Shown: one piece after another, positions 9,645 through 54,707 of the stretch
Position numbering within the stretch: position 1 is the stretch's first letter
Layout of the letters: the number at the start of each line of letters is the position of its first letter
Source of the DNA: Pseudomonadota bacterium
GTDB lineage: Bacteria; Pseudomonadota; Gammaproteobacteria; Ga0077536
Length of the DNA stretch: 64,000 nt
Assembly: GCA_027618655.1 (NCBI GenBank)
Contig: JAQCEL010000001.1
Span: forward strand, 2,238 to 66,237
Reading direction: 5' to 3'
Translations under genes and position numbers: made by a program
Notes under the pieces: generated by a model
What the model saw: the letters and a program-made list of their open reading frames with translations, nothing else
Databases searched by the model: none
What the model was told of the DNA's origin: nothing

Positions 9645-9647
9645 TCA

Positions 9648-12649: not shown

Positions 12650-12840
12650 ATGCTCGGAAATAAAAGCACAGAAAGTTTCATTGGAATTTATGTGCAGGTA
12701 ATAGAAGTAAAAAAGAGTGTCGAGATCTAAGTCGGTTGAATGCCGTCTTGATCCGACGAAATTGTAGCTGGAATATTTTAAATACTGCGCATTTCTTAAT
12801 GCGCGGATAATGCCTAGCAGGCGAACGCGGAGGGGCTTAT

Positions 12841-13989
12841 ATGTTTGAACTTGTAGATGCCTACAGTCAGAACGCTGTAATTAAGGTAATTGGTGTCGGT
12901 GGGGGCGGCGGGAATGCTGTGCAACATATGCTTGGCGCCGCCATTGAGGGTGTAGATTTCGTATGTGCGAATACTGACGCTCAGGCGCTCAAGAATTCGT
13001 CGGCGAAAACCGCACTGCAACTCGGTAGTGACATAACAAAAGGCCTAGGCGCGGGCGCAAATCCCGAAATAGGTCGACAGGCGGCCTTAGAAGATCGCGA
13101 TCGGATCAGTGACGTTCTAGAAGGTTCCGATATGGTTTTCATCACAGCCGGTATGGGCGGTGGTACCGGAACAGGTGCAGCGCCAGTGGTCGCCCAAATC
13201 GCAAAAGAAATGGGCATACTCACTGTTGCAGTTGTGACAAAACCCTTTTCGTTCGAAGGGCGAAAACGGACCGAGACGGCAAATGACGGGATCCGAGAAT
13301 TGAGTCAATTTGTCGATTCGTTAATCACCATCCCGAACGAAAAGTTGCTAAGCGTGCTCGGGCGAGATATCAGTCTACTCGACGCCTTTAAAGCCGCTAA
13401 CGACGTGCTGCTTGGCGCCGTACAGGGAATTGCCGAGTTGATTACCTGTCCTGGGCTAATCAATGTTGATTTTGCCGATGTGCGAACTGTCATGTCAGAA
13501 ATGGGCATGGCAATGATGGGTTCTGGAAGCGGCCGCGGAGCCGATCGTGCTCGGGATGCAGCCGAAGCTGCGATATCGAGTCCGCTATTGGAGGACATCA
13601 ATCTCGCGGGTGCTAAAGGGATCCTGGTCAACATTACGTCGGGCCTTGATTTAACCATGGGTGAATTCGAAGAAGTTGGCAACACCGTTAAATCGTTTGC
13701 CTCGGACAATGCGACGGTCGTCGTAGGGACCGTGATTGACCAGAATATGGAAGATAAAATCCGAGTTACGGTTGTTGCGACCGGGATCGGCAGTAGCTCC
13801 GATACGCGCATGAAGGAAGAAGTACCCAAGCTCAACGCGAAAGTTGCGGACCCGGATCTTGACTACAAGACGCTGGAGCGTCCCACCGTAATTCGTAAGC
13901 ATCCGGAAAGTATCGAGTATGGGGAAGCGAAAATGAGCAACCCTGATTACCTCGACATTCCGGCATTTTTGCGGCGCCAAGCGGATTAG
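12841..13989 (+). CDS. ftsZ: cell division GTPase FtsZ
   Basis: Tubulin signature [13 protein letters not shown] and the [13 protein letters not shown] motif. Confidence 0.95.
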
Positions 13990-14160
13990 CTAGTTTGTGC
14001 CGATGATTGACAATTATTATTTTCTTGGCGCGACATAGCTGTTGAATGGCACAAGCTGGCCGCAAAACCTAGCAAATTGAGTTGCGAAGGTTTATCGGCG
14101 TGTCCGAAGGTGTGGTAACATCGCATGCAACATGCTCTGGATAAAGGGCAGTGGGGAATC

Positions 14161-15072
14161 ATGATTAAACAACGAACGTTGAAAAACGTCATCCGCGCGA
14201 CAGGTGTCGGTTTGCACACCGGGAAAAAGGTCTACCTAACCTTGCGGCCCGCGGCACCCGATACCGGAATTGTCTTTCGAAGAACGGACTTAAACCCGCC
14301 GCTGGAAATTCCTGCGCGGGCAGAATTTGTCGGGGACACGAGTTTATCAACTAGCCTCGCGCGTGATGGGAAGCGCATTGCAACGGTGGAGCATCTGCTC
14401 TCGGCGTTTGCCGGACTCGGGATAGACAATGCCTGCGTCGACGTCAGTGCCTCCGAAGTCCCGATAATGGACGGGAGTGCGGGTCCGTTCGTATTTCTAA
14501 TCCAATCCGCCGGATTCGAAGAACAATGCGCGGCGAAGAAATTCATTCGAATAAAACGAGTGCTTGAAGTCGAAGATGGAGACAAGCGTGCTCGATTCGA
14601 ACCGTTTGACGGATTTAAGGTTTCGTTTGCGATCGAATTCGACCACCCGTTTTTTCAACAAAGTAGCAAGCATTCAGAAATTGATTTTTCCACAACCTCA
14701 TTCGTCAAGGAAGTGAGTCGGGCCCGTACATTCGGATTTATGCGAGATGTGGAATTATTGCGCGAGAGAAACCTTGCTCTCGGCGGCAGCCTCGACAACG
14801 CCGTCGTTGTTGATGACTATCGAGTACTAAACGAGGACGGGCTGCGCTACGAAGACGAATTCGTGAAGCACAAAATTCTGGATGCTATAGGCGATTTATA
14901 CTTGTTGGGCCATAGCCTCATTGGTTCATTTCACGGCCATAAATCAGGGCACGAGTTAAACAACCGATTACTGCGGGAATTACTAGCAAACAAAAAAGCG
15001 TGGGAACTTGTCACATTTAAAAATGAGGAAGTTGCGCCTATCTCATTTATGCAACCCATGCCTGCAAGTTAA
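14161..15072 (+). CDS. lpxC: UDP-3-O-acyl-N-acetylglucosamine deacetylase LpxC
   Basis: MIKQRTLKN...[10 protein letters not shown] is a typical LpxC N-terminus, and the HKxLD and GHxxxH zinc motifs are present. The track ORF from 14125 likely includes upstream read-through. Confidence 0.9.
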
Positions 15073-15139
15073 AACAGTAACGCTTATCTGCACTGTCTCC
15101 AGCGTTTTATCAAAAACCTTTCTGCGTCGTTTTTTGATC

Positions 15140-15604
15140 CTAATGCTTATGTCTCTTGAGACGTCTCAAGATCAGCTGCAGCGCGGGATCAGAGACCTGA
15201 CCTGCGCAGGATTCTAAACTAGCCATGTCGGAGGCGCTCAGAGCCGGCATCCTTCGTGGCTTTTGCTCCGTCTCTGAACCCTTACGCGAGGCAATCTTTA
15301 CGCGAATCGAGTCAACATCAGGACAATCCTGATCGGATTTATACACGCTGTGAAGCTCCGGGATCTTATATCGAAGTTTCGTGGCCCAGGCTGCCGATTC
15401 AACAATGAGCGTAAGTTTCCGGTCGCGCCACAATGCAACCTGAATATGGTCGCGCAACGGAGCATCGATTAGCCGCATGAATCGTTGTTCAATTTCGGCG
15501 TACTGTGCGGCTTCCTGTACTAATTGCCGTAGGGTTGAGTTTCGGGCGACAATAGCGCCTAGTTTTGTGGGGGACGACATCGTAGGCAACCTTCGATTCA
15601 TCAA
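15140..15604 (-). CDS. DUF721 (DciA-like) domain protein
   Basis: 154-aa ORF on minus strand between lpxC and the M23 peptidase. This is the position that DUF721 proteins hold in Pseudomonas-type lpxC to secA regions. The family call is from context and weak pattern recall. Start uncertain. Confidence 0.55.
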   Translation of the reverse strand: MMNRRLPTMSSPTKLGAIVARNSTLRQLVQEAAQYAEIEQRFMRLIDAPLRDHIQVALWRDRKLTLIVESAAWATKLRYKIPELHSVYKSDQDCPDVDSIRVKIASRKGSETEQKPRRMPALSASDMASLESCAGQVSDPALQLILRRLKRHKH

Positions 15605-15649
15605 GTGCCCAGTCTAACCTGGTGGCCTGCCAACCGAAATCAAAAATCA

Positions 15650-16588
15650 ATGGAACTCGTACTAATTTCTAATTCAAAGGGCGCGTTCGCAAGAGTCCGC
15701 TTCGGAATTTGGCGGTCAATGACCGCAATGTTGATCGTATCCGCTCTGGTTTTCGGCACCGGTTACAGCGGATTTAAGCGTGGCGAGGATTCAATGGCGA
15801 ATGCCATCCGCACTGACCCAGCGTTCGCTAGAACAATTTGGCAAGAAGAATTGGTCGCGCAGCGCCAATTGCTACGCGATATGCGCATCGGTTCGCAATC
15901 CGAGTTAACCACGCTAGCCGCTCGAACAGGTATCTTACAAGCCCATGTAACACGGCTAGATGCACTTGCCGAACGTCTTGTGTCGGTCGCGGACTTAGAC
16001 CCCAAAGAATTCGGGTTTACTGATGTGCCGGGTTTAGGTGGGCCCGATCCCGAACGTTCGGTCACGCCAAAATGGGCATCTTTGCTCGCGAATTTAGACT
16101 CTTTAAGTACGGATATCAAGGTTAGAGAAGACAGATTGGACGCATTAGAAGCGCAGATTTTCGATCGCCGCTTGCACGACGATATGCATCCCGCAGGACG
16201 GCCGATCGAACACGGTTGGATTTCCTCGCAATTCGGTTACCGAACCCATCCAGTTAGCGGGTCACGCGAGTTCCACAGCGGAATAGATTTCGCTGGTAAG
16301 GCGGGTTTAGATGTATTGTCCGTCGGTTCAGGAATCGTGACTTGGTCCGGCGAACGTTGGGGATACGGCAACATGGTTGAGATAAATCACGGTAACGACT
16401 ACGTAACCCGTTACGCGCACAACAAGAAGAATCTGGTGAAAATTGGCGACACGGTGGCAAAAGACGCGCCAATCGCACTACTTGGGTCAACCGGCAGCTC
16501 GACTGGCCCACACGTCCATTTCGAAGTGTTGCACAATGGGAAAGTCGTTAATCCGCGCGACTTCATAAAGCAAGCTGCTGCTAATTAA
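15650..16588 (+). CDS. M23 family metallopeptidase (LytM domain) with N-terminal TM anchor and coiled-coil
   Basis: C-terminal HSGIDFAG...HVHFEV M23 motifs. Has a membrane anchor. Start may be 15605, 15650 or 15719; real divergent promoters with the upstream minus-strand gene argue against 15605. Confidence 0.75.
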   Translation: MELVLISNSKGAFARVRFGIWRSMTAMLIVSALVFGTGYSGFKRGEDSMANAIRTDPAFARTIWQEELVAQRQLLRDMRIGSQSELTTLAARTGILQAHVTRLDALAERLVSVADLDPKEFGFTDVPGLGGPDPERSVTPKWASLLANLDSLSTDIKVREDRLDALEAQIFDRRLHDDMHPAGRPIEHGWISSQFGYRTHPVSGSREFHSGIDFAGKAGLDVLSVGSGIVTWSGERWGYGNMVEINHGNDYVTRYAHNKKNLVKIGDTVAKDAPIALLGSTGSSTGPHVHFEVLHNGKVVNPRDFIKQAAAN

Positions 16589-16819
16589 ATTCACTGGGAT
16601 CCCTGCCAGATGGCGGTACTACTTTGCTACAATGCCGACACTTCGAGCGTGGGCGCTCGCAACGCCGATTGATAACAAAAAGCGGGCACTCATGGCGATG
16701 CAGTCTCTGACCTGAGTAACGATCACACCTGTAAGCGACGAAAAGTCACTTGATTTAGCCTTACAGAATGAGGCGCACGCGTGACTCATTCCAATGAAAA
16801 CCAGATTGACGAGATCCGT

Positions 16820-19567
16820 ATGAGCCTAAATCCTCTCAAGTTTCCGCAAAAAATAATCCAGTCAGTTTTCGGGACTCGTAACGACCGATATCTGAAAAAA
16901 CTGAGCAAACCGATCGCGGAAATTAACTCACTCGAGGAACAATTCGAGGCCCTCAGCGATGATCAGCTACGCGATAAAACCGGCGAATTTAAGACCTTAT
17001 TGGCCGACGGGAAAACCCTTGACGACATCTTACCGGCGGCATTTGCACTTGTTCGAGAAGCCGCTAAAAGAGTCTTGGACATGCGCCATTTCGACGTGCA
17101 ATTGCTGGGTTCAATGGTCTTGCACCAAGGGAAAATCGCCGAAATGCGGACCGGCGAAGGTAAGACTCTCGTCGCCACCTTGGCAACTTATTTGAATGCG
17201 TTGTCTGGTCGCGGCGTTCATGTCATCACGGTCAACGATTATTTAGCGAAACGCGATGCCGAATGGATGGGGCGGATCCATTCGTTCCTAGGCATGAGTG
17301 TTGGCGTCGTCCTATCCGGAATGGACGCAAACGACCGAAAAGCTGCCTATGGTGCTGATATTACCTACGGTACGAACAATGAATTCGGGTTCGATTATCT
17401 TCGCGACAATATGGCCTTTTCGATCGAGCAGCGCGTGCAACGTGAATTGGTCTATGCGGTTGTCGACGAAGTTGATTCAATTTTAATTGATGAAGCTCGA
17501 ACCCCGCTCATAATTTCTGGCCCCACTGATGACCGGAGCGATATCTACGCCAAGATTGATCAAATTGTTCCTAAGCTGGCGCGTCAGCAAGGCTTGGTAG
17601 AGGACGGCGAAGAAGGCGATGGGGATTACTCGGTCGATGAAAAATCACGTCAAGTCTCGCTCACGGAACAAGGCCATGAACGGGTAGAAATACTGTTAAC
17701 CGAGAACGGCCTACTTGCGGCCGGCGAAAGTTTATACAGCACCGTGAATATTTCTCTGATGGCGCACGTTAACGCGGCATTGCGTGCTCATGCCTTGTTC
17801 AAGCGCGACGTCGATTACGTTGTCCAGAACGGCGAAATTGTGATCGTCGACGAGTTCACGGGTCGGACAATGGCCGGCAGGCGCTGGTCCGAGGGACTAC
17901 ACCAGGCTGTGGAGGCGAAAGAAGGGGTCTCGATACAACAAGAAAACCAGACATTGGCATCGATAACGTATCAAAATTATTTTCGCTTATATGAAAAGCT
18001 GTCCGGAATGACGGGTACGGCGGACACAGAAGCCTACGAGTTTCAGCAGATTTATGGTCTCGAGGTTGTCGTCGTCCCAACGCACAGGGACATGATTCGC
18101 GCTGACCTCGGCGACGTAATTTTCCTGACGGCAAAAGAAAAATACGCCGCGATTATCGAAGACATTCGTGAGTGTATAGAAACCGGACAACCCGTATTAG
18201 TCGGAACCGCATCGATCGATAGTTCCGAGTATCTGTCTAAATTATTAGATAAAGAAAAAATAAACCATCAAGTGCTGAACGCAAAATTTCATGAACGCGA
18301 AGCACAAATTATCGCTGACGCGGGGCGCCCCGGTACGGTTACCGTGGCGACAAACATGGCCGGTCGAGGAACGGATATCGTACTCGGCGGCGGACTCGAA
18401 TCAGAGTTGGCGAAGCTCGAGAATCCGAGCGAAGAAGAAGTCGCTGCTTTAAAAATGGATTGGCAAGAACGGCACGATAAAGTCCTAGCGTCGGGCGGGC
18501 TGCATATTATTGGAACCGAGCGGCACGAATCGCGCCGCATCGATAACCAATTGCGCGGTCGATCTGGTCGTCAAGGCGATCCTGGTTCCAGTCGTTTCTA
18601 TTTGTCGCTTGAAGACAATCTGATGCGGATCTTCGCTTCAGAGAGGGTCGCAAGCCTTATGCAGAAACTAGGCATGGAAGAGGGTGAGGCGATTGAACAT
18701 CCGTGGGTTACAAAGGCGATCGAGAACGCACAAAGAAAAGTTGAAGGTCGAAATTTTGATATCCGCAAGCAATTACTTGAATTTGATGATGTTGCGAATG
18801 ATCAACGTAAACACGTTTACGAACAACGTCGGGAACTTATGGAGGCAGATGACGTTTCCGAGAATATTAAGGGTATTCGACATGACGTCGTTAGCGAATT
18901 CATTGATCGATTCATTCCTCCGAAAAGCTTCGACGAATCGTGGGACGTCGCCGGCCTTACGCGCGCCTTAGAATCCGAATTTGCACAACGTTGCGATCTT
19001 GCAGCTTGGTTGGAATCCGACGAGCAATTGGACGAAGCGGGCTTGCGCAGCCGGATACTCGAAAGTATCGAGAGTACGTACAATGATAAGGACGAGCGCG
19101 TTGGACCAGAAGTGATGCGTCAATTCGAAAAGGCGATCATGCTGCAGATCTTGGACAGTCATTGGAAAGACCATCTGGCAGCGATGGATTACCTTCGCCA
19201 AGGAATCCATCTACGCGGCTTTGCGCAAAAGAATCCCAAGCAGGAATATAAACGCGAGGCATTCGAAATGTTCTCGCGGATGCTTGGTGAGATCATGCAC
19301 CAAGTGATTTCCGTGCTATCGAAGGTCGAGGTGAAGGAGCGAGAAGACGTCGCCGCTGTCGAAGAGCAACGCCGGCAAAAGGTTGCCGAAATGGAATTCC
19401 AGCACAAAACGCCCGAAAATTCGCTCGCTATGAATGTCAGCGCCAGTAACGCGGAACCACCGGACAACTCGCCATTCGTCCGCAAAGGACAAAAAATCGG
19501 GAGAAACGAACCCTGTCCATGCGGCTCGGGCAAGAAATATAAACAGTGTCACGGAAAGCTCGTTTAA
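16820..19567 (+). CDS. secA: preprotein translocase ATPase SecA
   Basis: The SecA DEAD motor is present ([39 protein letters not shown]). C-terminal zinc-binding tail [14 protein letters not shown]. The track ORF begins at an upstream GTG (16781); ATG at 16820 gives a typical N-terminus. Confidence 0.93.
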
Positions 19568-44384: not shown

Positions 44385-45301
44385 CTACAGCTTCAAACAT
44401 TTCCTGTCCGTGTTGCAAAGCGACTGATTCGCAGTGGCTGGGCGACTTGCCCGGCATCGATAGATTCGCTGGCGAACGCTTAGCGCGTGAGCTTGTTGGC
44501 GGCAAGCTATATCGGTGTCGTAATTGCCAGCTAAAATTCCGGTATCCATTGCTCGATGCTGCGCAATATGACCAGATGTACGCGACGGGCGACAACGCGA
44601 TTTGGACAGGCGCTATTCTTCGGCCTGACTGGGATTTGGTGATCAATCAAATTAAGCGAGCAGGCTCTACTCGGCGATCGGTCCTTGATTTTGGTTGTCA
44701 TACCGGCGAACTACTTTCGCGATTGGATCCACAATACCGGCGCTTCGGCGTAGAGATTAATCGAACTGCGGCCCAGGTTGCGTCCGAGCGACATCACGTG
44801 AAGATTTGGTCTAGCTTGGACGAGATACCAGGCGATCTTCGGTTCGATGTTATCGTTGCCGTCGACGTAGTTGAACATATGCGCAACCCAAAAGATTTGA
44901 TCGACCGACTGAGTAATTTGTTGAGCGAGTCCGGGATCTTGATTGTGACAACGGGTGATGCGGAAAATCATTTCTGGAATCGATTCGGCGCCAATTGGTG
45001 GTACTGCATCAATCCGGAACACATTGCTTTTCTCTCCGAACCTTGGTTGAGTTATTTAACTCGGCAAAGTGAACTGAGTGTCGCGCAATGTCATCGGTTT
45101 CGCCACCGCAGTCTCGGAGCTTTCCGGCTATTTATCCACGCGCTATTTATGTTTTTCTATGGACTCTTTCCCGTCACGTATGTGCGCATCAGTAAAATGA
45201 TAAAGAAAATACGCTCACGTCATACCGAAGATCGAGTGCTCGGAAATGGAGTTAGTGCCGACCATTTGTTCATTGTGCTGACGAAAAATTTCGAACTATG
45301 A
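44381..45301 (+). CDS. class I SAM-dependent methyltransferase with N-terminal zinc ribbon
   Basis: The N-terminus carries a zinc ribbon (CPCC...CRNC), followed by a methyltransferase motif I-like region (VLDFGCHTGEL) and an acidic post-I motif. Start overlaps the flippase stop. Confidence 0.65.
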   Translation: MTTASNISCPCCKATDSQWLGDLPGIDRFAGERLARELVGGKLYRCRNCQLKFRYPLLDAAQYDQMYATGDNAIWTGAILRPDWDLVINQIKRAGSTRRSVLDFGCHTGELLSRLDPQYRRFGVEINRTAAQVASERHHVKIWSSLDEIPGDLRFDVIVAVDVVEHMRNPKDLIDRLSNLLSESGILIVTTGDAENHFWNRFGANWWYCINPEHIAFLSEPWLSYLTRQSELSVAQCHRFRHRSLGAFRLFIHALFMFFYGLFPVTYVRISKMIKKIRSRHTEDRVLGNGVSADHLFIVLTKNFEL

Positions 45302-45418
45302 ATAACTCCAACCATGGAGTTCAAAGGGAATTCGTGTGTTAGTTACTGAGAATCACCTGGCGGGCTGTAGTTACGTCTCGTACGTAATTACTGATCGCTA
45401 TAATCAACATGGTTCGTA

Positions 45419-46201
45419 GTGGACTTACCGGTGTCTGACATAAAATTCTCGGTGATCACGGTGTCACTCAACTCTGAAAATGATATCGAGAAAACCATTA
45501 TCAGTGTGGCGAGCCAAAACTACCCAAACAAAGAACACATAGTTATTGATGGCGGATCCGTCGACGCTACTGTAGATATCATTCGAAAATACGATGATAA
45601 AATTTCGTTTTGGGTTTCCGAACCGGATAGCGGAATAGCGGATGCGATGAATAAGGGGATCTCGTACGCAACTGGAGATTACCTGTTGTTCATTAATTCC
45701 GACGATTATCTAATCAACGAGAATGTATTGAAAAACATCTTCGAATCAGTTCAGGAAAGGCTTGATTACTATATTTTCAAAGTGCACTCGGTTTATCCTG
45801 ATAACAAAACAAGACTTTTGCCGAACAATGATTTTAGTTTCGCTACAAATTTTAAAATGAGGTCCTGTCATCAAGGGCACGTGATATCGAGGAAATTATT
45901 CAAACACTACGGCGGCTACGATTGTTCGTTCAGAATAGGGATGGACTATGAGTTTGTTTTACGCGTACTGCGACAGGGGATAAAGTCACGGTCTGTCGAC
46001 TTGGTTATTTCCGGCATGGGGCAAGCAGGCATCAGTTCTCGGAAAGACTGGGCTGGTCTTGAACAGAGGTTTATGGACGAACGCAAAGCCCAGACAAAGA
46101 ACTGTCCGAATATCGTGTTTGCGGCGCTTTATCTCATATATTGGCATCTGTACATTGCATATAGAAAAATTTCACACGTTTTCCAAAAAGATCATATTTA
46201 G
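45419..46201 (+). CDS. family 2 glycosyltransferase (GT-A fold)
   Basis: FSVITVSLNSEN...IVIDGGSVDAT and a later DxD-like NSDDY motif. Confidence 0.7.
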   Translation: MDLPVSDIKFSVITVSLNSENDIEKTIISVASQNYPNKEHIVIDGGSVDATVDIIRKYDDKISFWVSEPDSGIADAMNKGISYATGDYLLFINSDDYLINENVLKNIFESVQERLDYYIFKVHSVYPDNKTRLLPNNDFSFATNFKMRSCHQGHVISRKLFKHYGGYDCSFRIGMDYEFVLRVLRQGIKSRSVDLVISGMGQAGISSRKDWAGLEQRFMDERKAQTKNCPNIVFAALYLIYWHLYIAYRKISHVFQKDHI

Positions 46202-46399
46202 ATCTACAAATTTTGAGTTTAAAGATTTTGATACTGTCGTTAACTGGCGTGACAGATACCCGGTTTCGCGAGTCATGCGGGCTTCCCTTGGCGTTCGCAT
46301 TAGTGGAAATCAGGAAAGTATGTACGATCAAAGCAAATCCCTGTCGTGACTGAGACTCGTTCGATAATTACTTCGAGCCCCTCGTCATAGAATTTCTGT

Positions 46400-47533
46400 A
46401 TGGCTAAGGTCACACTGATTACTCGCAATTTCCCGCCGTTAACGGGCGGCATGGAACGACTACTGCAACAAGTTTATTGGGGATTGAAAGACCATCACAA
46501 TTGTGACCTGGTTGGGCCAAATGGGTGCCGAGATTATGCCGATCATGACGACGTAATCTCCGAGACTTCCGTTTCGCCGACACCGCTGTTTTTGCTGTTC
46601 AGTTTTGTAAAAAGCATCTATCGGTTTTCAATCACCGGAAAGCCTGATCTCGTCGTTGGCGGTAGTGGGCTTGTCGGTCCGGTTGTGGTGCTGCTCGCCC
46701 GCATATTTAGGGTCAAATCAGTTCTTTTGGTTCACGGGCTAGATATCGTCGTTGCGTCGCGCATCTACCAGTTTCTGTTTGTCCCGTTTTTGCGCCGTGC
46801 CGACTTGGTTATTTGCAACAGCAACAATACCCGCGAATTAGCGATCCGAAGCGGTGTGCGGGCTGATCGGATAGAAATAATTCGCCCGGGTGTTGCGATC
46901 CCCACTAGCCCTTTATCACAGGTACAGGCGAGCGAACTGTTAGGCTTACATGACAAGACGATGCTGTTGTCCGTAGGACGCCTGATCCCGCGCAAGGGGA
47001 TTGCTGAGTTCATCACCAATTCGTTCGTTGAATTGGCCTCAAAAAACCCAAACCTTGAGCTGTGGATAGCTGGAAGTGAACCGCAAAGCGCTTTGAATAA
47101 ACACCACGGCTCCGTTCTGGAGTCGATTAATGAGGCTGTCCGTCTGCACGGACTTGAGTCCCGAATTAGACTTCTTGGACGGGTCGATGACGCAAAACTT
47201 GAACAATTATATGCCGCCGCCGATGTTTTCATTTTTCCTCTAATCGATACTCCGGGCGACGTGGAAGGGTTTGGCATGGTTGCGATCGAGGCAGCGGTCT
47301 ACGGAACACCGACAGTTGCATTCGATTGCGGGGGTGTCAGTGATGCGGTGGAGAATGGGAAAAATGGTTACCTCGTTGAACCGGGTGATTATCCTGAGTT
47401 CGCCAACTGTGTTATGCGCGCGATAGTCACACATCGTCGCGAACAGGCGATGGAATACGCGAAGACTTTTTCTCGGGCGAATTACTCTCGTCAATTGAAC
47501 AACGCAATCGATCACGTTCTACGGTCGCGTTAG
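46400..47533 (+). CDS. family 4 (GT-B fold) glycosyltransferase
   Basis: C-terminal motif EGFGMVAIEAAVYGTPTVAFDCGGVSDAV...GYLVEPGD (EX7E-type retaining GT4). Confidence 0.75.
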   Translation: MAKVTLITRNFPPLTGGMERLLQQVYWGLKDHHNCDLVGPNGCRDYADHDDVISETSVSPTPLFLLFSFVKSIYRFSITGKPDLVVGGSGLVGPVVVLLARIFRVKSVLLVHGLDIVVASRIYQFLFVPFLRRADLVICNSNNTRELAIRSGVRADRIEIIRPGVAIPTSPLSQVQASELLGLHDKTMLLSVGRLIPRKGIAEFITNSFVELASKNPNLELWIAGSEPQSALNKHHGSVLESINEAVRLHGLESRIRLLGRVDDAKLEQLYAAADVFIFPLIDTPGDVEGFGMVAIEAAVYGTPTVAFDCGGVSDAVENGKNGYLVEPGDYPEFANCVMRAIVTHRREQAMEYAKTFSRANYSRQLNNAIDHVLRSR

Positions 47534-47711
47534 AGAGTGTGAGCGTGTTTGACTTCAGCGCGAGAGATATGGACCCAGAGATTGGCGCATAGTGGCTAAG
47601 TGCATATTTCACAAGTTACGAATGTGAACGCGGCGAAATTACCTTTGATGCTCGGATTCGTATTGTGTCCGCAAGTGGCCGTTGCGTTGAATTGATTTAG
47701 GTGAAGCTCAC

Positions 47712-48827
47712 ATGAGAATCGCGCTAATTTGCAAACGACACTACACCAACAAGGACCTCATCTCAGAGAAGTTTGGCCGTCTTTATCACTTTCCTTACCA
47801 CTGGGTTAAAGGGGGCCACGACGTTTACGTAAATGCCACCCACTACAGCGCCCTCTCAGTTCATAACTACGTCTATGACGGAATTATGGTAGATAGCGTG
47901 CCTATCTGGAATCCGCTTCGCTGGTACCAAAGATTGGTGCGTGATCCAATCGAAGCATTCCGTCCCGACATCGTTGTGGCGAGTGGAGATAGCCACTTCG
48001 GCATGCTCGGCCACCGGATAGCTCGACAACTCGGCGTAGCATTTGCATTCGATGTCTATGACGATTATTCAAAATTCGGCACTAATAGGCTTCCGTTTAT
48101 CGGAAAAATGTTCGAGAAAACGATTCGTGCGGCCGATTTGGTGGTTTGTGCAAGCGAACCGCTAAGCGAGAGAATTGCGCACCTATCGCGTTCAATCGTA
48201 GTGGCCGAGCAGGGTTCAGATTTCGATTTATTTAAGCCGATCGATCAGAACCTTTGTAGAGCACGCTATAAGTTACCGACGACTGTGACACTCCTAGGCT
48301 TTTGCGGATCTATCGATAGCCGCTTCGATTTACCGTTACTGCTACAAAGCCTGGAAACTCTGAACGAGAAACATGGACCTACGAAGCTTGTCGTTTGCGG
48401 GCCAAATGTCGAACGACTAGATCTAAGCGATCAACACATTATTTACCTCGGCCCAAAACCACAAAAAGAAGTTCCATTCATTATTGGTGCATGCGATTTA
48501 ATGTTGATGCCCTATAGAAAAACCGCACTTTCAGAAACGTGCAATCCGTGCAAACTGTCGGAATATATCGGGTGCGAAAAGCCGATTGTTTCGTCGAACG
48601 TGTCGAATGTGGCCGACTACATGCGTGGAAGTGAAAAGGGCCTCTACGAGCCTGGAACAGTTGAAAGCTTTTTGACTGCTGTAGGCGAACAGCTTTCGGA
48701 CCCGCAGCTTGTCGAGAAGACGAACGCTCTTGAATGGAGCGTGATAGCGGATCGGTACAGTATTTTCTTGAGCACGGCCATCGAATCCCGGGCAAATGCA
48801 CAACGAGCCAATGGTGCGCGATCCTAA
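47712..48827 (+). CDS. GT-B fold glycosyltransferase (GT4-like)
   Basis: 371 aa. N-terminal domain MRIALICKRHY.... C-terminal sugar-donor-binding-like region ...MPYRKTALSETCNPCKLSEYIGCEKPIV. Confidence 0.6.
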   Translation: MRIALICKRHYTNKDLISEKFGRLYHFPYHWVKGGHDVYVNATHYSALSVHNYVYDGIMVDSVPIWNPLRWYQRLVRDPIEAFRPDIVVASGDSHFGMLGHRIARQLGVAFAFDVYDDYSKFGTNRLPFIGKMFEKTIRAADLVVCASEPLSERIAHLSRSIVVAEQGSDFDLFKPIDQNLCRARYKLPTTVTLLGFCGSIDSRFDLPLLLQSLETLNEKHGPTKLVVCGPNVERLDLSDQHIIYLGPKPQKEVPFIIGACDLMLMPYRKTALSETCNPCKLSEYIGCEKPIVSSNVSNVADYMRGSEKGLYEPGTVESFLTAVGEQLSDPQLVEKTNALEWSVIADRYSIFLSTAIESRANAQRANGARS

Positions 48828-49246
48828 TGCGCTCTGAAGAATCGATTGGTACTTCCGCCTTAGTCCCTCTGCGTACATTGAGTCTCCAATCGCCTCGAGG
48901 GCACGCACACCGGGGATCCGTTCTACTCATTTTATCGGCGACTGCGCTTATGAATGGGTCTGCGTAACCACGTAGCGGGGTGCTTGGAATGGTACTAGTC
49001 GGCTGCAAGCTTGCGGCTGGCTTAACTGCTACCAATAATTTCTGGGCAGCCAACAATGCGATCCGGCGCAGTTGAAACCATCGCCTGAAGCCTTACTCAA
49101 ATTTTTCAGATCGTAGCGATGTGTCTAGCTAGCAAGTTGATGAGCAAATATGCGACAGTGTCATGGAAAGTACATAGCAGTTTTATGTATATGTGGTTTA
49201 AGCGAACTTCACGAATTTACTGCGGCAGGCAAATATCGATTCCATA

Positions 49247-49975
49247 TTGTTAGAGGTATATATGACAGATAACAACAAAGCACTGGAAGAGATGAAGTCG
49301 TTTTACGACGATGTTTACTACGCGAACGCGGATAAACCATTGCAAAATTTCCGACACTTATCCGGGCTCGCGACGAAATTAAAGATAGCGTCATCGGATT
49401 CTGTTCTCGATATTGCCTGCGGTCTGGGCGAATGGTTAAAGGTCTGCGATTCGCGCGGTGCAAATGTTCACGGAATCGATCTATCACAGCGAGCCATCGA
49501 CTATTGCAAAAAACAAATACCGAGCGGTGAATTCTTCGCGCAAGCTGCCGAAGTGTTACCTTTCGATAACGAAAGCTTTGATTACGTGACATGCCTTGGT
49601 TCTCTCGAACACTTTGTGGATCCAGTGATCGCACTGAAAGAGATGGCGAGAGTATCTAAACGCGGAGCACGATTCGTCATCTTGGTGCCGAATGCCGATT
49701 TTCTCACTCGCAAACTGAAACTTTATTACGGTACGAACCAGAAAGACGCAAAGGAAGTTGTCAGGACGCTTGATGAATGGGAACGATTGTTCAACGAGGC
49801 TGGATTAACGGTCACCAGCAAATGGAAAGATCTCCACGTATTATCGTGGGCTTGGATTTCAATGAACGGCTGGACGCACGCGCCAATTAGGGGCCTGCAA
49901 GCGCTTGCTTTAGCGCTGTGGCCATTAAAGTGGCAATACCAGGTATACCATCTTTGTGAAAAATCGAAGGCGTGA
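49247..49975 (+). CDS. class I SAM-dependent methyltransferase
   Basis: Motif I VLDIACGLGEW, post-I GIDLS, and a Methyltransf_11-like layout. Confidence 0.7.
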   Translation: MLEVYMTDNNKALEEMKSFYDDVYYANADKPLQNFRHLSGLATKLKIASSDSVLDIACGLGEWLKVCDSRGANVHGIDLSQRAIDYCKKQIPSGEFFAQAAEVLPFDNESFDYVTCLGSLEHFVDPVIALKEMARVSKRGARFVILVPNADFLTRKLKLYYGTNQKDAKEVVRTLDEWERLFNEAGLTVTSKWKDLHVLSWAWISMNGWTHAPIRGLQALALALWPLKWQYQVYHLCEKSKA

Positions 49976-50604
49976 ATTATCTTACCCATCGACATGCGAC
50001 AACGAGCGTTTTGACTTTCAACCTGTTTTGTTTTTTGTTCGTGAAGCTGAACAAGGAGACGAACGCTTAGAAGCGTGCACTGGCTACGAGAATGCTACGG
50101 CGATCGGTAGTTATATCGATATCACGAATTTTCAATAGTTGTACGGTACGAAGAAACGAGCGGTATACGTAAAATTCTAAATACGACTTGGCTTCGCTTG
50201 GAGTCACGTGCGGATTCGCAAATAGAAGCCTGACGGTCACAGTTTCGCTTAGCGTAATCGTGTTCGTGCTCTATCGACGGTTCCGAGGGCTGGCCAGCTA
50301 ACATTGCTTCAGTTTTGACCCTAAGAACCGATATGCTTTCGTACGACATAGAATCTTCTCGCGATCGAAAATTCGCATTTAAAGTCGATTTAGGGGCAAC
50401 TCGAATGTACCCGGCGTAATTTTCCATTGCTGGGTTCGCTGCGGGGCCATACCCGGTATTTTATGATATCGTCGGGGAAACAAAAGCAACTAAAGGTACC
50501 CGACCAGCTGCAAGCCGGGCTTACGCTCGCGCTGCATGTAGATAACACCAGAAACTACTGCCCGACGTAGTATCGTAAATGTCTAGCCATAGAAGATTAA
50601 TGCC

Positions 50605-51294
50605 GTGAATAAAATTGAATCCTTTGAGCAATTTCTTGCGACCCAAAGTGTCCAGCTACCACTAGTAAATTTTTGCTTCAATCTACTTTTGGCTGCAGCG
50701 CTCGGGTATGTGGTCGGTCGAGTTTATGTGAAATATGGATATTCCATTTCGAACAGAAAGAGTTTTTCCCGTAATCTATTATTAATTGCGATGACCACGA
50801 TGGTCGTCATCAGTATAGTGAAGAGTTCATTAGCCTTGTCCCTTGGTTTAGTTGGCGCGCTGTCTATTGTTCGGTTCCGAACTGCGATAAAAGAACCAGA
50901 GGAACTGGCTTATTTATTTATCGCAATAACAATCGGCCTAGGTCTTGGGGCGGATCAATTCGTCCCGACAGTTATCGCGGTTTTGCTGATAACAGCAGTC
51001 ATTGTTATTGCCCGATCTAGGGATCAATCAAGTTCAAGCGAATCCAACCTGTACATAACGATTTCAAGTAACAACAGCAAAGCCGTTTCGCTTGAAAACA
51101 TTACGGAAATTATTAAACCGTCATGTGTGGAACTATCATTAAAACGCTTTGACCAAAGTGGCAGTGGAATAGAAGTTGTGTTCCATGCTCTATTCAATGA
51201 TATTTCGAATTTTTCCACCGCCAAAGCTGGATTGCTGAATTTGTCAGATGACGTGACCGTATCGTTAATCGATCAACAAGGCATCGTTAGGTGA
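50605..51294 (+). CDS. DUF4956 domain membrane protein
   Basis: Multi-pass membrane protein with the GLVGALSIVRFRTAIKEP signature, which I recognise from DUF4956. Its stop overlaps the CotH gene start. Confidence 0.6.
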   Translation: MNKIESFEQFLATQSVQLPLVNFCFNLLLAAALGYVVGRVYVKYGYSISNRKSFSRNLLLIAMTTMVVISIVKSSLALSLGLVGALSIVRFRTAIKEPEELAYLFIAITIGLGLGADQFVPTVIAVLLITAVIVIARSRDQSSSSESNLYITISSNNSKAVSLENITEIIKPSCVELSLKRFDQSGSGIEVVFHALFNDISNFSTAKAGLLNLSDDVTVSLIDQQGIVR

Positions 51295-53906
51295 AGATTA
51301 AGTCAATCTCTGCGTCCGGGAAGGTTCAAAAAGCATCAAATCTTAATAGCAAAGTAGGCGCAAGCCGTCTTAATAGGCTGTACCAAATAGTATTTTTTCT
51401 AAACGTAATAGTTTTGGCACTAGCCGCCTACCTTTCTACTCAACACTATTGGCTTATCGTTAAGGCTGCTGACAAGTTGGATGCCACTTTTGGGATTTAC
51501 GACGTTAAGCACATTGGTGCGTTCGTCAATCAACGCTTACAAGGTTTCTTGGTTAAACCTGAAGTGTTGCAAATCGATATTAAGCATATCAACGTGCAAA
51601 ATTTGGAATATCAGCGTGACACTGCGCTGAATGGCGTTACAGAATTTACGTACGTGCCGGCGGATCTTATTTACGAAGGGAAAAAATTTAAATCTAAGTT
51701 GAGGCTGAAAGGCGATAGAGATATTCATTTTGACCATCTGGATACGGCATCCTATCGAGTGAAGATACGTGGCAATCAATCTCTGTGGGGTATGAAGTTC
51801 TTCTCACTTCATAAACCTCGTGCCAGAAACTATATTCACGAATGGATTTTCCTCGAGATGATGAATAAGGAAGGAGTTATCAGTCCACGATATAAATTCG
51901 TAAAGGTCGTGGTGAACGGCAAAGACAATGGTGTGTATGCGGTAGAAGAACACTACACGAAACTACTACTCGAGAACCGTCAGAGTAGAGAGGGTCCGAT
52001 TTTACGGTTCGACGAAAGCACCGGAACAAATTACGTAACTTCGACTATTACTCCGTACGAACAGTCGAAATGGCTGTCAAAAGAAAATCTTCCTGTTGCG
52101 CAAATTGCCATTCAGCTTCTCGAAGGATACCGCCGTGGGGAGTTGGCTTTTCCGGAGGTTTTTGACGTAAAAAAATGGGCTATTTTTTTCGCCGTTAGTG
52201 ACATGACGTCGAGCATGCACGCGCAAATATCGAAAAGCCTGCGTATCTATTACAACCCGATCACTTCACGATTGGAACCAATTCCTTTTGATGGACATTA
52301 CGGGACGTGTGATAAACGGTCGCCATTTATTGCCGCAGAGCTAGGTATCACGGAAGAAAAAAATTGGACTTATGCGACAGACAGAGATTGGTTTTACGGT
52401 CTATTTAATGACCCGAAGTCATCCAATCAGGAATTTCTCGCGGCCTATATTGCTGAACTTGAAAAACTGAGTAACGTCGATTATCTGGACAAGTTTTTTG
52501 CCACGGCTAGAGCTGATCTGGATCACAATCTTGCAATTATCAATAGTGAAACTAATTGGCATGACAATATCTTTTCGTTTGGGCCGATCCCATACGTATA
52601 CAAAGAATCCGATTACTACGATATCGCTAAGTATGTGCGCGGTTTGCTGATCCCAAGATTAGATGCTTTCGTCGTTGAGCATACAGAGAACGAAATCGTA
52701 GTTGAAATCATAAATCGGCATAAGGCACTGCCAGTTCTAATTCTGGGGGCAGGTTGCGGATCCTCGGTATTTAGAGCGAAGGATCCGATAAAGGTAAATG
52801 CTAGAACTGCCTCTAATAGAGAAGCTGAGCCTGTAAAGGTTGTCCTGGAGAAAATGGGGGTTGGTGACACGGCGAACGAGTGTCTACAGTTATTCGTGAA
52901 ACTGCCCGGTCTCGATTCGGTCCAACCAGTACCATTGCGGCCTTGGCGACCGTCCGATTCACAGGTACGGAAAAGCGACGTCGCGCGAAAACCGGGCAAT
53001 TATCAAAACTATGATTTCTTCGAACTGCGTGACGGTAAAAAATTGGTCATGTCTCAAGGACAACACACATTAGATGAGACGGTCGTCGTCGATGGTGTCG
53101 AAGAACTTCAAATCCATCCCGGGACAAATTTGACATTAACGAACAACGCGTCATTGATCGTGCGGGCGTCGGCGCAACTCCACGGGACATCGGAATTCCC
53201 AATTGTAATCCATGGCGACAATGGGGGCGGGTTTGCGGTGATCGGCGCGAAGGGCGAATCGAAAATCGAAAACGTCGTATTCGATAAATTGTCGAATCCG
53301 CAAGACGGGGCTTGGGCGTTAACTGGCGCAGTTACGTTTTATGAATCACCGGTGTCCATTCGAAGCACGCAATTCCTCAACAACAGTTCTGAAGACGCTT
53401 TTAACGGAATCCGTTCTAAAATCGAGATGGTGGATTCGACGTTCAAAAATGTCCTACGCGATGCGGTCGACGTCGACTTTGGAAATATCAAAATCCGAGA
53501 GCTCGTCTTTGAAGATGTCGGGAACGACGCGATCGATGTATCTGGTACTACGGCTGAGGTTGAATCAGTTTCGATTCGAAGGACTGGAGACAAAGGGATC
53601 AGTGTCGGCGAACGAAGTTCGCTCTATGGTAAGAATATAGACATAGCTAACGTAAAAATTGGTGTGGCTGGTAAGGATGGTTCGAAAGCGATATTTGACG
53701 GTTTGCGAATCGATCGTGCCAATATTGGATACGCGGTTTTTCAAAAAAAGCCAGAGCATGGTCCTGGGTTAATTGAGTCGCGTGGCACAGAGCACCACGG
53801 AGTTGGCGAGCTTGCGGTCGTTGAAATGGGCTCATCGTTGATGATCAACGGCATGATCTACGAAGGAAACTTAGCAGACATCCGCGAGCGCCTATACGAA
53901 GAATAG
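51291..53906 (+). CDS. CotH-family (atypical protein kinase fold) protein with N-terminal membrane anchor and C-terminal right-handed parallel beta-helix domain
   Basis: The N-terminus has a hydrophobic anchor (IVFFLNVIVLALAAYL). The central part has a CotH-like core (VVNGKDNGVYAVEEHYTKLLLENR...). The C-terminal ~300 aa hold repeated ~22-residue beta-helix coils (NNASLIVRAS..., DAIDVSGTTAEV..., GDKGISVGERSSL..., IDIANVKIGVAGKDG...). Confidence 0.6.
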   Translation: MKIKSISASGKVQKASNLNSKVGASRLNRLYQIVFFLNVIVLALAAYLSTQHYWLIVKAADKLDATFGIYDVKHIGAFVNQRLQGFLVKPEVLQIDIKHINVQNLEYQRDTALNGVTEFTYVPADLIYEGKKFKSKLRLKGDRDIHFDHLDTASYRVKIRGNQSLWGMKFFSLHKPRARNYIHEWIFLEMMNKEGVISPRYKFVKVVVNGKDNGVYAVEEHYTKLLLENRQSREGPILRFDESTGTNYVTSTITPYEQSKWLSKENLPVAQIAIQLLEGYRRGELAFPEVFDVKKWAIFFAVSDMTSSMHAQISKSLRIYYNPITSRLEPIPFDGHYGTCDKRSPFIAAELGITEEKNWTYATDRDWFYGLFNDPKSSNQEFLAAYIAELEKLSNVDYLDKFFATARADLDHNLAIINSETNWHDNIFSFGPIPYVYKESDYYDIAKYVRGLLIPRLDAFVVEHTENEIVVEIINRHKALPVLILGAGCGSSVFRAKDPIKVNARTASNREAEPVKVVLEKMGVGDTANECLQLFVKLPGLDSVQPVPLRPWRPSDSQVRKSDVARKPGNYQNYDFFELRDGKKLVMSQGQHTLDETVVVDGVEELQIHPGTNLTLTNNASLIVRASAQLHGTSEFPIVIHGDNGGGFAVIGAKGESKIENVVFDKLSNPQDGAWALTGAVTFYESPVSIRSTQFLNNSSEDAFNGIRSKIEMVDSTFKNVLRDAVDVDFGNIKIRELVFEDVGNDAIDVSGTTAEVESVSIRRTGDKGISVGERSSLYGKNIDIANVKIGVAGKDGSKAIFDGLRIDRANIGYAVFQKKPEHGPGLIESRGTEHHGVGELAVVEMGSSLMINGMIYEGNLADIRERLYEE

Positions 53907-53908
53907 TT

Positions 53909-54601
53909 GTGTTTCAAATGTCCTCCGATTGTTCTTACCGATACGAACGAAAGTTCCACACGACGTCTTTATTTCGCGAAGATGTCGTAAATATTATTAA
54001 GCTACATCCTGCGAACTTTGCGCTCGCGTATCCGGACCGATACGTCAATAATATTTACTTGGATACGGCGGAGTTCAATTGTTTCAACGATAACGTAGAT
54101 GGCGTTGCGTCTCGACGTAAATACCGAATACGCTGGTATGGAAACACCTTGGGTTTGGTTACAGCGCCGGTTCTTGAGGTAAAAGCGAAAGAAAATCTTG
54201 TCGGAACAAAGGCATCCTTTCCTCTTCCGACATTCAATGTGGATGAGGAATTCACCACAGATTCGCTGCGTAGGATATTCTCGAAAGCACAATTACCAGA
54301 ATTGATCCGCGTTACGCTCGGCGAATATTACCCGGTGTTACTCAATGGTTATCGACGCAAATATTTTGTTTCTTTCGATAATAAAGATGTCACGCATCTT
54401 GACGATAAAATGCACTATCGCGCGATCAAAGGTTGCGGAAATTACTATCTTGGTAAGGCGGTTGATGCGGAATCTGTGATTGTCGAACTAAAATATGGTC
54501 TTGATGGCACGGAAGAGCATAACTCGATCGCGAATTATTTGAACGTTCGAATGACGAAAAGCTCAAAATACGTTTCGGGGATTTTCGAAATCTATGGATG
54601 A
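53909..54601 (+). CDS. VTC-domain (polyphosphate polymerase-like / CYTH triphosphate tunnel) protein
   Basis: 230 aa starting ...YRYERKF, with charged beta-strand repeats. Follows DUF4956 and CotH, as in the recurrent three-gene module. Confidence 0.55.
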   Translation: MFQMSSDCSYRYERKFHTTSLFREDVVNIIKLHPANFALAYPDRYVNNIYLDTAEFNCFNDNVDGVASRRKYRIRWYGNTLGLVTAPVLEVKAKENLVGTKASFPLPTFNVDEEFTTDSLRRIFSKAQLPELIRVTLGEYYPVLLNGYRRKYFVSFDNKDVTHLDDKMHYRAIKGCGNYYLGKAVDAESVIVELKYGLDGTEEHNSIANYLNVRMTKSSKYVSGIFEIYG

Positions 54602-54707
54602 CAGCTCAGCTCGCACAGGCGCGTAGCAATCGCTGCTGTCTGGCAGTGCCAGTTGTCGCTCTTCTAGTCGATCTTTGACAATATTCAAATGTCCGGTGCG
54701 GTTATTT

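Follow-up and report, generated by a model that had tools for sequence, protein, structure and literature searches.

A recurrent three-gene module (DUF4956, CotH-like, VTC-domain) beside a gammaproteobacterial pilin locus and its probable link to phosphate chemistry at the cell surface

The gene trio at the locus

We analysed a 64,000-nucleotide stretch of DNA (the window) from a metagenome-assembled genome (MAG) of a Pseudomonadota bacterium (Gammaproteobacteria, GTDB lineage Ga0077536; GenBank assembly GCA_027618655.1, contig JAQCEL010000001.1, positions 2,238 to 66,237 of the forward strand), centring on three consecutive genes that encode a DUF4956 membrane protein, a CotH-like protein fused to a beta-helix, and a VTC-domain protein (Table 1). 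A reading made earlier from the letters of the DNA (hereafter the sequence-only reading) had named these three families and described the open reading frames (ORFs) as closely packed. Both points held: profile searches placed all three proteins above the Pfam gathering score, and in the raw sequence the DUF4956 stop and the CotH start share a 4-nt overlap (GTGA), and the CotH stop codon (TAG) is followed after 2 nt by the GTG start of the VTC gene. Judged from the predicted features of its proteins, the trio probably carries phosphate chemistry to the cell surface.

The DUF4956 protein matched Pfam PF16316 (E=1.8e-17, 64 bits against a cut-off of 30.6) and the VTC protein matched PF09359 (E=1.8e-19, 70.7 bits against 23). 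The CotH protein matched PF08757 over residues 150-395 and profile positions 11-265 of 322 (E=1.5e-12, 48.1 bits against 23.8) and, over residues 731-815, the Beta_helix family (E=4.7e-6, 26.8 bits against 25.9). An NCBIfam scan returned no model for any of the three proteins, and the PADLOC models of anti-phage defence gave zero matches to all three.

The gap upstream of the DUF4956 gene (629 bp), together with a convergent gene downstream of the VTC gene, suggests that the trio is a transcription unit of its own; scans for consensus promoters and terminators gave nothing better than shuffled sequence and did not locate the promoter position. For the VTC gene a second start is possible, an ATG 9 nt downstream of the GTG, which is the one used in a 97%-identical relative (locus L165). 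The NCBI protein records at the locus are MDA0820833.1 and MDA0820834.1, the latter being the CotH protein at 830 aa. This record starts 41 codons downstream and omits 51291-51413 of the window; because the basic N-terminal tail and part of the membrane anchor are thereby removed, it would be mis-predicted as soluble. The 871-aa form is supported by homologs of 869-871 aa aligned at 100% coverage and by an independent gene call.

Table 1. Features of the trio and of the adjoining region, in window coordinates
Feature	Position	Strand	Basis
Upstream gap, 629 bp, presumed promoter region	49976-50604	+	Between methyltransferase ORF end (49975) and DUF4956 start
DUF4956 polytopic membrane protein, 229 aa	50605-51294	+	ORF; Pfam PF16316
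Invariant DUF4956 core, K73-Q118, VKSSLALSLGLVGALSIVRFRxAIKEPEEL...GLGLGADQ	50821-50958	+	62-sequence alignment A4
DUF4956 C-terminal beta-alpha-beta-beta-alpha-beta (ACT-like) domain, residues 148-223, predicted cytoplasmic	51046-51273	+	
CotH-like/beta-helix protein, 871 aa, predicted membrane-anchored and outward-facing	51291-53906	+	Pfam PF08757 and Beta_helix
CotH N-terminal signal-anchor helix, residues 30-48	51378-51434	+	Hydropathy; preceding tail with 7 K/R and 0 D/E
CotH kinase-like domain, about residues 90-455	51558-52655	+	Profile alignment to 5jd9
Asp304 of CotH	52200-52202	+	Six residues before His310
His310, catalytic-Asp position of CotH	52218-52220	+	
Asp334, metal-binding Asp of CotH	52290-52292	+	
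Beta-sandwich linker domain, about residues 457-560	52659-52970	+	All-beta in AlphaFold model
Right-handed parallel beta-helix, about residues 577-860	53019-53870	+	Foldseek; 40-sequence alignment A2
VTC-domain (triphosphate tunnel) protein, 230 aa, soluble, predicted cytoplasmic	53909-54601	+	Pfam PF09359
Large polytopic membrane proteins directly after pilA, 661 and 602 aa	38900-40885; 41052-42860		

Co-conservation of the three genes

Two surveys of homologous loci were run. The first was anchored on DUF4956 with one genome per species and returned at least 597 loci, and the second was anchored on VTC in metagenomes and returned at least 581; the best 80 of each were analysed. The surveyed loci number 163 overall, of which 64 are fully flanked (at least 4.5 kb on both sides). 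The complete trio was present in 53 of these 64 loci (83%), bearing out the statement in the sequence-only reading that the trio recurs in distant bacteria. Broken down by anchor and at the same flanking threshold, the 50 DUF4956-anchored loci carried VTC in 47 cases, CotH in 45 and all three genes in 43, and the 14 VTC-anchored loci carried DUF4956 in all 14 and CotH in 10; DUF4956 was also found in 25 of 25 VTC-anchored metagenome loci with at least 4 kb upstream. The pairing of DUF4956 with VTC, the two lying adjacent in these 47 and 25 loci, is close to obligate. The CotH count depends on the profiles used, being 62% with a hidden Markov model of the beta-helix subfamily only and 90% of DUF4956-anchored loci once canonical subfamilies were added: clustering of neighbouring ORFs had brought to light two canonical CotH subfamilies (Pfam E=8e-59 and 3e-46) precisely where CotH had seemed absent. 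The subfamily fused to a beta-helix, to which the protein of the window belongs, is the largest (81 of the 163 loci).

Hosts of the trio are found in the Proteobacteria, Bacteroidota, Chloroflexota, Planctomycetota, Verrucomicrobiota, Myxococcota and Gemmatimonadota and among some archaea, and the genes occur in the orders DCV, CDV and DVC (by family initial). The immediate neighbours vary widely, with 160 Pfam families among 129 proteins; the commonest families are GT2 (6 of the 129), Wzy_C (5) and methyltransferases (5), so that glycan genes are the most frequent theme and yet a minority. Because of this variety the trio is taken to be autonomous, a chromosomal cassette that lands often but not necessarily in glycan loci. 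That the adjacency reflects chance or an ancestral gene order, with no functional link, is hardly conceivable: it would fit a synteny shared only by closely related genomes, and the surveys refute it with several gene orders, three CotH subfamilies, many phyla and unrelated flanks. Searches of plasmids and phages found no copies of the trio.

Several loci showed further arrangements. A Kordiimonadaceae MAG (L013) has two full trios back to back on opposite strands (7219-11258 and 12451-16536), and additional CotH/beta-helix paralogs adjoin the module at L007 and L078. Close archaeal homologs of VTC and DUF4956 were found in a Woesearchaeota MAG (L029), a Nanoarchaeota member (P0062) and the cultured Methanogenium marinum (P0093), and the module therefore crosses the domain boundary. 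Experimentally tractable organisms have homologs too, among them B. thetaiotaomicron (BT3498), S. mutans (SMU_1946) and S. intermedius.

In 19 of the 64 fully flanked loci (about 30%), and in 36 of the 163 overall, the module has a fourth gene beside it, which encodes a calcineurin-like metallophosphoesterase. The protein carries a signal peptide and, in Bacteroidota, also a type IX secretion system (T9SS) sorting tail; the canonical CotH subfamilies likewise carry signal peptides or T9SS tails. Examples of the metallophosphoesterase gene lie at L002 12630-13748 (between CotH and VTC), L051 3728-4930 and L163 766-1635. The window holds no copy of this gene.

Relation to the accessory genes of pel operons

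The module is already in the literature, where it is mechanistically blank. Whitfield et al. (2020, PMC7112168) reported that Gram-positive pel operons have an accessory set of genes next to them, made up of cotH, DUF4956, DUF4832 and a gene for a polyphosphate polymerase. In S. intermedius (SIR_1592-1594; mBio 2025, PMC12345266), deletion of the DUF4956 or the CotH homolog cut aggregation in artificial sputum medium by more than 50%, with Pel going up in the former deletion and down in the latter. The authors of that study proposed no mechanism; they read the DUF4956 homolog as MgtC plus ACT, proposed a role in phosphate metabolism and reported that the synteny of the trio was not found outside pel loci, whereas the present surveys find the trio widespread without pel. 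In C. perfringens, the NELoc-2 region has VTC and CotH genes beside a chitin-synthase-like gene, and between them lie genes for membrane proteins annotated 'tubulin/FtsZ', which are possibly DUF4956 proteins. We found no paper that assigns a mechanism to the trio or tests a bacterial VTC-domain enzyme, in agreement with the earlier remark that no function had been assigned.

The pel accessory module shares with the trio of the window the adjacency of the same three families, a secreted CotH protein, an association with surface polysaccharide and a DUF4956 protein of the same build, in which an ACT-like domain comes after a helical membrane part. It differs in being Gram-positive and located beside pelDEADAFG, whereas the trio studied here sits in a Gram-negative proteobacterial MAG without pel genes: none was found within the annotated 34-64 kb, where the best PelF score was 32.7 bits against a cut-off of 100 and came from a generic GT4. 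The CotH protein of the pel module is fused to FN3, and the one described here belongs to another subfamily, anchored, fused to a beta-helix and with His in place of the catalytic Asp. A separate DUF4832 glycoside hydrolase accompanies the pel module, and the annotated 34-64 kb region gave no match to DUF4832. The claim in the sequence-only reading that the trio stands in a new context was thus half right, the link to surface polysaccharide being known from pel loci and the Gram-negative, pilA-adjacent setting being new; the instance in the window is a Gram-negative, pilA-adjacent, pel-free variant with a distinctive CotH subfamily.

The VTC-domain protein

Single-protein searches of the PDB were only marginal and profiles were required. 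A profile of 33 homologs matched the catalytic domain of Vtc2 with E=6e-7 and that of Vtc4 with E=1.5e-4, and Vtc4 residues R196, K200, R264, R266, E279 and K281 correspond to R11, K15, R73, R75, E90 and K92, none of which varies within the bacterial family; this match and these mapped catalytic residues support the stated kinship to yeast Vtc4. The conserved tunnel residues comprise R11, K15, R73, R75, E90, K92, E193, K195, K217 and K220, all invariant in alignment A3 except K217 (at least 90%). In yeast, the triple change R264A/R266A/E426N gives an inactive VTC (PMC9911596). A hydrophobic segment was found in 0 of the 33 homologs, and the protein is therefore predicted to be cytoplasmic.

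Reviews of polyphosphate regard VTC as eukaryotic and PPK1 and PPK2 as the bacterial enzymes. In yeast, the VTC complex makes polyphosphate in the cytoplasm and, as a coupled event, moves it through a channel whose walls carry basic residues; on the luminal side the polymer is processed by the metallophosphatase Ppn2 (PMC7381174). The bacterial trio resembles this complex in having the same Pfam catalytic domain with the tunnel Lys, Arg and Glu residues conserved as far as the alignment to Vtc4 reaches, in the obligate pairing of the catalytic part with a membrane protein and, in part of the loci, in a comparable partner to the metallophosphatase on the far side; the secreted metallophosphoesterase (19 of 64 loci) parallels the role of Ppn2. 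It differs in that the eukaryotic complex has SPX and Vtc-type three-helix transmembrane domains, whereas the 230-aa bacterial enzyme stands alone without either, in that the eukaryotic membrane channel has no similarity in sequence or fold to DUF4956 (no Vtc chain matched, with 8i6v in the searched library), and in that the eukaryotic complex has no counterpart of the outward-facing CotH-like enzyme. From these features and the predicted topologies, it is quite possible, though we stop short of calling it probable, that the trio is a bacterial analogue of the VTC complex in which polyphosphate would be made inside the cell, passed through DUF4956 and used outside.

The DUF4956 protein

Clustered at 50% identity, the DUF4956 family comprises 6,061 representative clusters, and its member is the best conserved protein of the trio (50-55% identity across phyla). 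By hydropathy, 62 of 62 homologs are polytopic, as had been anticipated for this protein. The invariant core (Table 1) includes a basic cluster, R90, R92 and K96. In about 14 of the top 150 DUF4956 representatives, the protein is about 450 aa long and begins with a signal peptide and a concanavalin-like lectin/glucanase domain (PF06439, Laminin_G_3). Representatives of this fusion are P0387, P0389, P0393, P0402, P0410, P0449 and P0463, and similarly long stop-to-stop DUF4956 frames occur together with a PKD-CotH protein at the Anaerolineae loci L019, L028, L034, L038, L057 and L070. Since the signal peptide and lectin domain are fused in front, the N-terminus of DUF4956 would lie outside the cell, and an outside N-terminus combined with a strongly basic first loop would place the RFRxAIKEPEE motif and the ACT-like domain inside. 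The most consistent topology is N-out with five helices and C-in.

JGI (Joint Genome Institute) annotation labels some DUF4956 members YhiD/MgtC-like. We tested membership of the MgtC/YhiD family (PF02308) and keep it as no more than a resemblance: the Pfam match reached 12.6 bits (E=0.19, cut-off 31.4), and an hhalign comparison with E. coli YhiD returned a probability of 1%. What DUF4956 has in common with MgtC, YhiD and SapB is only the generic ACT-like C-terminal fold; the invariant core motif is specific to the DUF4956 family.

These observations bear on a rival explanation without export, in which the VTC enzyme would make or hydrolyse a phosphate compound at the inner face of the membrane, DUF4956 would be an MgtC-like anchor or regulator coupling phosphate or energy status to a surface polymer, and CotH would work separately outside. 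The weak MgtC match does span profile positions 1-116 of 121, the JGI labels and the S. intermedius authors' MgtC plus ACT reading with its phosphate-metabolism proposal point the same way, and ACT domains are typically ligand sensors. The match is however far below threshold, with the hhalign result no better, and the ACT-like fold is generic; moreover, this explanation leaves unexplained both the tight co-inheritance of an outward-facing enzyme with a cytoplasmic triphosphate-tunnel enzyme and the joining of the module by secreted phosphoesterases and lectin domains. We regard it as distinctly unlikely.

The CotH/beta-helix protein

The AlphaFold model of the CotH protein (predicted local distance difference test score, pLDDT, of 88) has a CotH fold and a long parallel beta-helix, and Foldseek matched it to B. 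cereus CotH (5jd9) with E=8.8e-13 and a TM-score of 0.65 on the target. The same single N-terminal anchor with an N-in pattern was found in 37 of 40 homologs, and the earlier description of a membrane-anchored CotH protein fused to a parallel beta-helix is accordingly upheld by both the homologs and the fold.

Either of the substitutions D228Q and D251A abolishes the activity of B. subtilis CotH. We placed the catalytic Asp through the published spacing of D228 and D251; in B. cereus CotH the sole 23-residue Asp pair is NFDG...PWDYD. At the catalytic-Asp column, B. cereus CotH and the two canonical subfamilies of the module (7 of 7 and 6 of 6) have Asp, and the beta-helix-fused subfamily has His (8 of 8). 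In a larger alignment of this subfamily, position 310 is His in 113 of 117 members and Asp in none, Asn322 is kept in 117 of 117, and D334, which aligns to B. cereus D247 and corresponds to the metal-binding D251 of B. subtilis, is kept in 113 of 117. The other shared core columns of CotH, R/K156, E184 and E220, are also kept, and D304 is Asp or Glu in 112 of 117 members of the His-bearing subfamily, although this position is not conserved in canonical CotH. D304 and His310 may form a His-Asp pair. The retention of D334, Asn322 and the other core columns, together with the subfamily-specific D304, points to an active site that would be altered but live rather than dead. Family and fold agree with the description of this protein as kinase-like, and the kinase call itself is uncertain, with the catalytic Asp replaced by an invariant His. 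ATP is an unlikely donor given the predicted outward-facing location of the protein.

Compared with Bacillus CotH (5jd9/5jda, a Fam20 relative), the protein has in common the Pfam family, the fold, the metal-binding Asp and several core columns. The differences are the catalytic Asp of Bacillus CotH (B. subtilis D228), which is His in the subfamily found here; the place of action, which for Bacillus CotH is the mother-cell cytoplasm and for the present protein is predicted to be extracytoplasmic and membrane-anchored; and the fusion of the latter to a beta-sandwich and a beta-helix.

The beta-helix carries an invariant ladder (D702, D724, D727, D729, D749, K768, D796 and K820 in the 40-sequence alignment A2), which looks like an active-site or cation-binding groove and not like a passive scaffold. 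Across the turns at residues 701-822 (53394-53750) run the acidic motifs SEDAxN, RDAVDVD, NDAIDVS, GDKGIS, GKDGS and QKKPE. Foldseek matches of the beta-helix were a GH87 glucanase, PL6 alginate lyases, AlgG, polygalacturonases, phage tailspikes and WceF. With such carbohydrate enzymes (PL6, AlgG, GH28, GH87, tailspikes and WceF) the domain shares the fold (E 2e-6 to 1e-3) and a stacked, conserved acidic row along the helix; identity is about 10%, and no family-specific catalytic motif was identified.

A second rival explanation starts from this protein. Exported polyphosphate, made and exported by VTC and DUF4956, would be the product itself, an anionic polymer of the matrix or capsule, and the CotH/beta-helix protein, possibly a pseudokinase, would take no phosphoryl groups from it but would organise, anchor or remodel either this polymer or the surface glycan. 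The catalytic Asp is missing in this CotH subfamily, and the beta-helix resembles enzymes that act on polyanionic polymers (alginate, pectate). Pel is a cationic polymer. The DUF4956 mutant of S. intermedius aggregates less and yet has more Pel, which suits the loss of a crosslinker better than the loss of a polysaccharide. On the other hand, His310, Asn322 and Asp334 (113, 117 and 113 of 117) are too conserved for a dead site, the canonical CotH subfamilies of the module keep the complete catalytic set, and deletion of the VTC gene in S. intermedius was without phenotype. On this evidence we think the explanation unlikely.

A proposed route for phosphate across the membrane

Under the preferred reading, in which the trio would be an analogue of the VTC complex, a self-contained and horizontally mobile envelope module would split a phosphate-polymer pathway across the cytoplasmic membrane. 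In a first step suggested by its catalytic residues, the cytoplasmic VTC enzyme would use ATP to make polyphosphate or would handle triphosphate or polyphosphate in its tunnel. DUF4956 would then dock this enzyme and move the product across the membrane, as its obligate linkage and topology suggest, and its ACT-like domain may serve as a regulatory sensor. In a third step, the anchored CotH-like enzyme would take the exported polymer as substrate or phosphoryl donor, possibly via His310, and the beta-helix domain would bind or cut a surface polysaccharide; because ATP is unavailable outside the membrane, an exported polymer is attractive in this role. What results would be a glycan or glycoprotein of the cell surface that is phosphorylated, polyphosphorylated or crosslinked by polyphosphate, and in the roughly 30% of loci that have it the secreted metallophosphoesterase would trim the polymer. 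A link of the module to glycans is supported by the beta-helix fold, by the fusions to lectin domains, by the glycoside hydrolase that Gram-positive versions encode separately and by the glycan neighbours, and the aggregation and Pel phenotypes of the S. intermedius DUF4956 and CotH deletions also speak for the route. What the analysis itself establishes is family membership, co-conservation, predicted topology, conservation of catalytic residues and the Asp-to-His change; enzymatic activity, export and substrate belong to the proposal. The suggestion in the sequence-only reading of an extracytoplasmic phosphate or polyphosphate chemistry fits the predicted topology.

Several points weigh against this route. 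The topologies were derived from hydropathy, charge bias and fusions, and in the AlphaFold model of DUF4956 (pLDDT 76) residues 51-94 form a single long helix, at low confidence. No solved structure matched the membrane domain of DUF4956, the Vtc1/3/4 channel included, and nothing supports the formation of a pore or oligomer. The alignment of the VTC protein to Vtc4 stops short of E426, for which the invariant E193 in the VELKY strand is the likely counterpart. No fusion of VTC to DUF4956, of VTC to CotH or of DUF4956 to CotH was seen in the 163 loci. The canonical CotH subfamilies of the module retain the ATP-type catalytic Asp, and no enzyme with a kinase fold is known to us to take polyphosphate as its donor. 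Finally, deletion of the S. intermedius VTC homolog SIR_1593 gave no significant phenotype (PMC12345266), and this silence argues against a strictly linear pathway unless another source of polyphosphate compensates.

A bolder version of the same route would have a widespread bacterial and archaeal VTC machine thread polyphosphate through a DUF4956 channel as the donor for CotH enzymes, with a phospho-histidine intermediate at His310 and transfer to a surface glycan; we consider this version improbable as a whole. If the route were true, it would add to PPK1 and PPK2 a second, vectorial route of polyphosphate in prokaryotes, and would explain the source of surface and extracellular polyphosphate, how secreted kinase-fold enzymes obtain a phosphoryl donor outside the cell, and the pel accessory genes of streptococci and clostridia, which affect aggregation, a virulence-linked trait. 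Its main value is that of a testable hypothesis for a VTC-like system of polyphosphate export and utilisation in prokaryotes. Relative to the searchable literature, the autonomy of the trio and its spread well beyond pel loci are new, as are the Asp-to-His change in its largest CotH subfamily and the joining of the module by secreted metallophosphoesterases and lectin domains.

Genomic surroundings of the trio

On its upstream side the trio is preceded by pilS, pilR and a type IVa pilin gene (38312-38740), and the stretch from the pilin gene to the trio encodes a pair of large polytopic paralogs, a Wzx-like flippase, two methyltransferases and three glycosyltransferases (one GT2, two GT4). The convergent gene downstream encodes, on the opposite strand, a GT2 that resembles polyprenyl-phosphate sugar synthases and scores below curated cut-offs, and beyond it follow the housekeeping genes suhB, trmJ, purM and hda. 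The guanine-plus-cytosine (GC) content is 0.473 across the block of about 39-55.6 kb against 0.52-0.54 in the flanks, and is lowest in the trio (0.443), which suggests a horizontally acquired island at the pilin locus.

To call this block a glycosylation island next to pilA is fair. The earlier mention of pilin glycosylation genes holds as far as glycan genes beside pilA are concerned; the pilin as their target is inferred, and the polytopic paralogs matched no family or structure in Pfam, NCBIfam or the PDB. Likewise, the trio is embedded in the island at this locus, as had been noted, but is no obligate member of such islands, its neighbours elsewhere being very heterogeneous. Under the proposed polyphosphate route, the likeliest target in this host would be a glycan from the surrounding island beside pilA, with the module itself independent of the island.

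A third rival explanation makes the trio a dedicated tailoring unit of this island, phosphorylating the pilin glycan or an O-antigen-like glycan of the neighbouring genes. The trio does sit within a low-GC block of flippase, methyltransferase, GT2 and GT4 genes beside pilS, pilR and pilA, and a relative with a 45%-identical CotH (L001) likewise has a pilin gene next to it, along with Wzy_C, flippase and sugar transferase genes. Elsewhere, the trio of a 63%-identical relative (L003) lies between an oxidoreductase gene and metH with no glycan genes nearby, and among the 160 Pfam families at 129 neighbour positions GT2 accounts for just 6 and Wzy_C for just 5. The upstream gap of 629 bp and the convergent downstream gene suggest a separate transcription unit, and pilin glycosylation by the island itself is only inferred. 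The explanation is very unlikely in our view, and the heterogeneous neighbours elsewhere together with the 63%-identical relative make the island context weak evidence for the substrate of the trio.

Other relatives and details of the region were as follows. In L001, type IV pilin and PilS-like genes lie within a few kb of the trio (16671-17165 and 17538-18407), with Wzy_C and sulfatase genes between, and in L002 the trio is in an O-antigen-type locus. The low-GC block of the window runs from pilA to suhB (about 38900-55600), and its right-hand junction is the same in the 97%-identical relative L165. The two polytopic paralogs directly after pilA are candidates for uncharacterised periplasmic (GT-C-like) glycosyltransferases that would act on the pilin; they share an F(V)FDD motif at the N-terminal end and a C-terminal part that is long and soluble.

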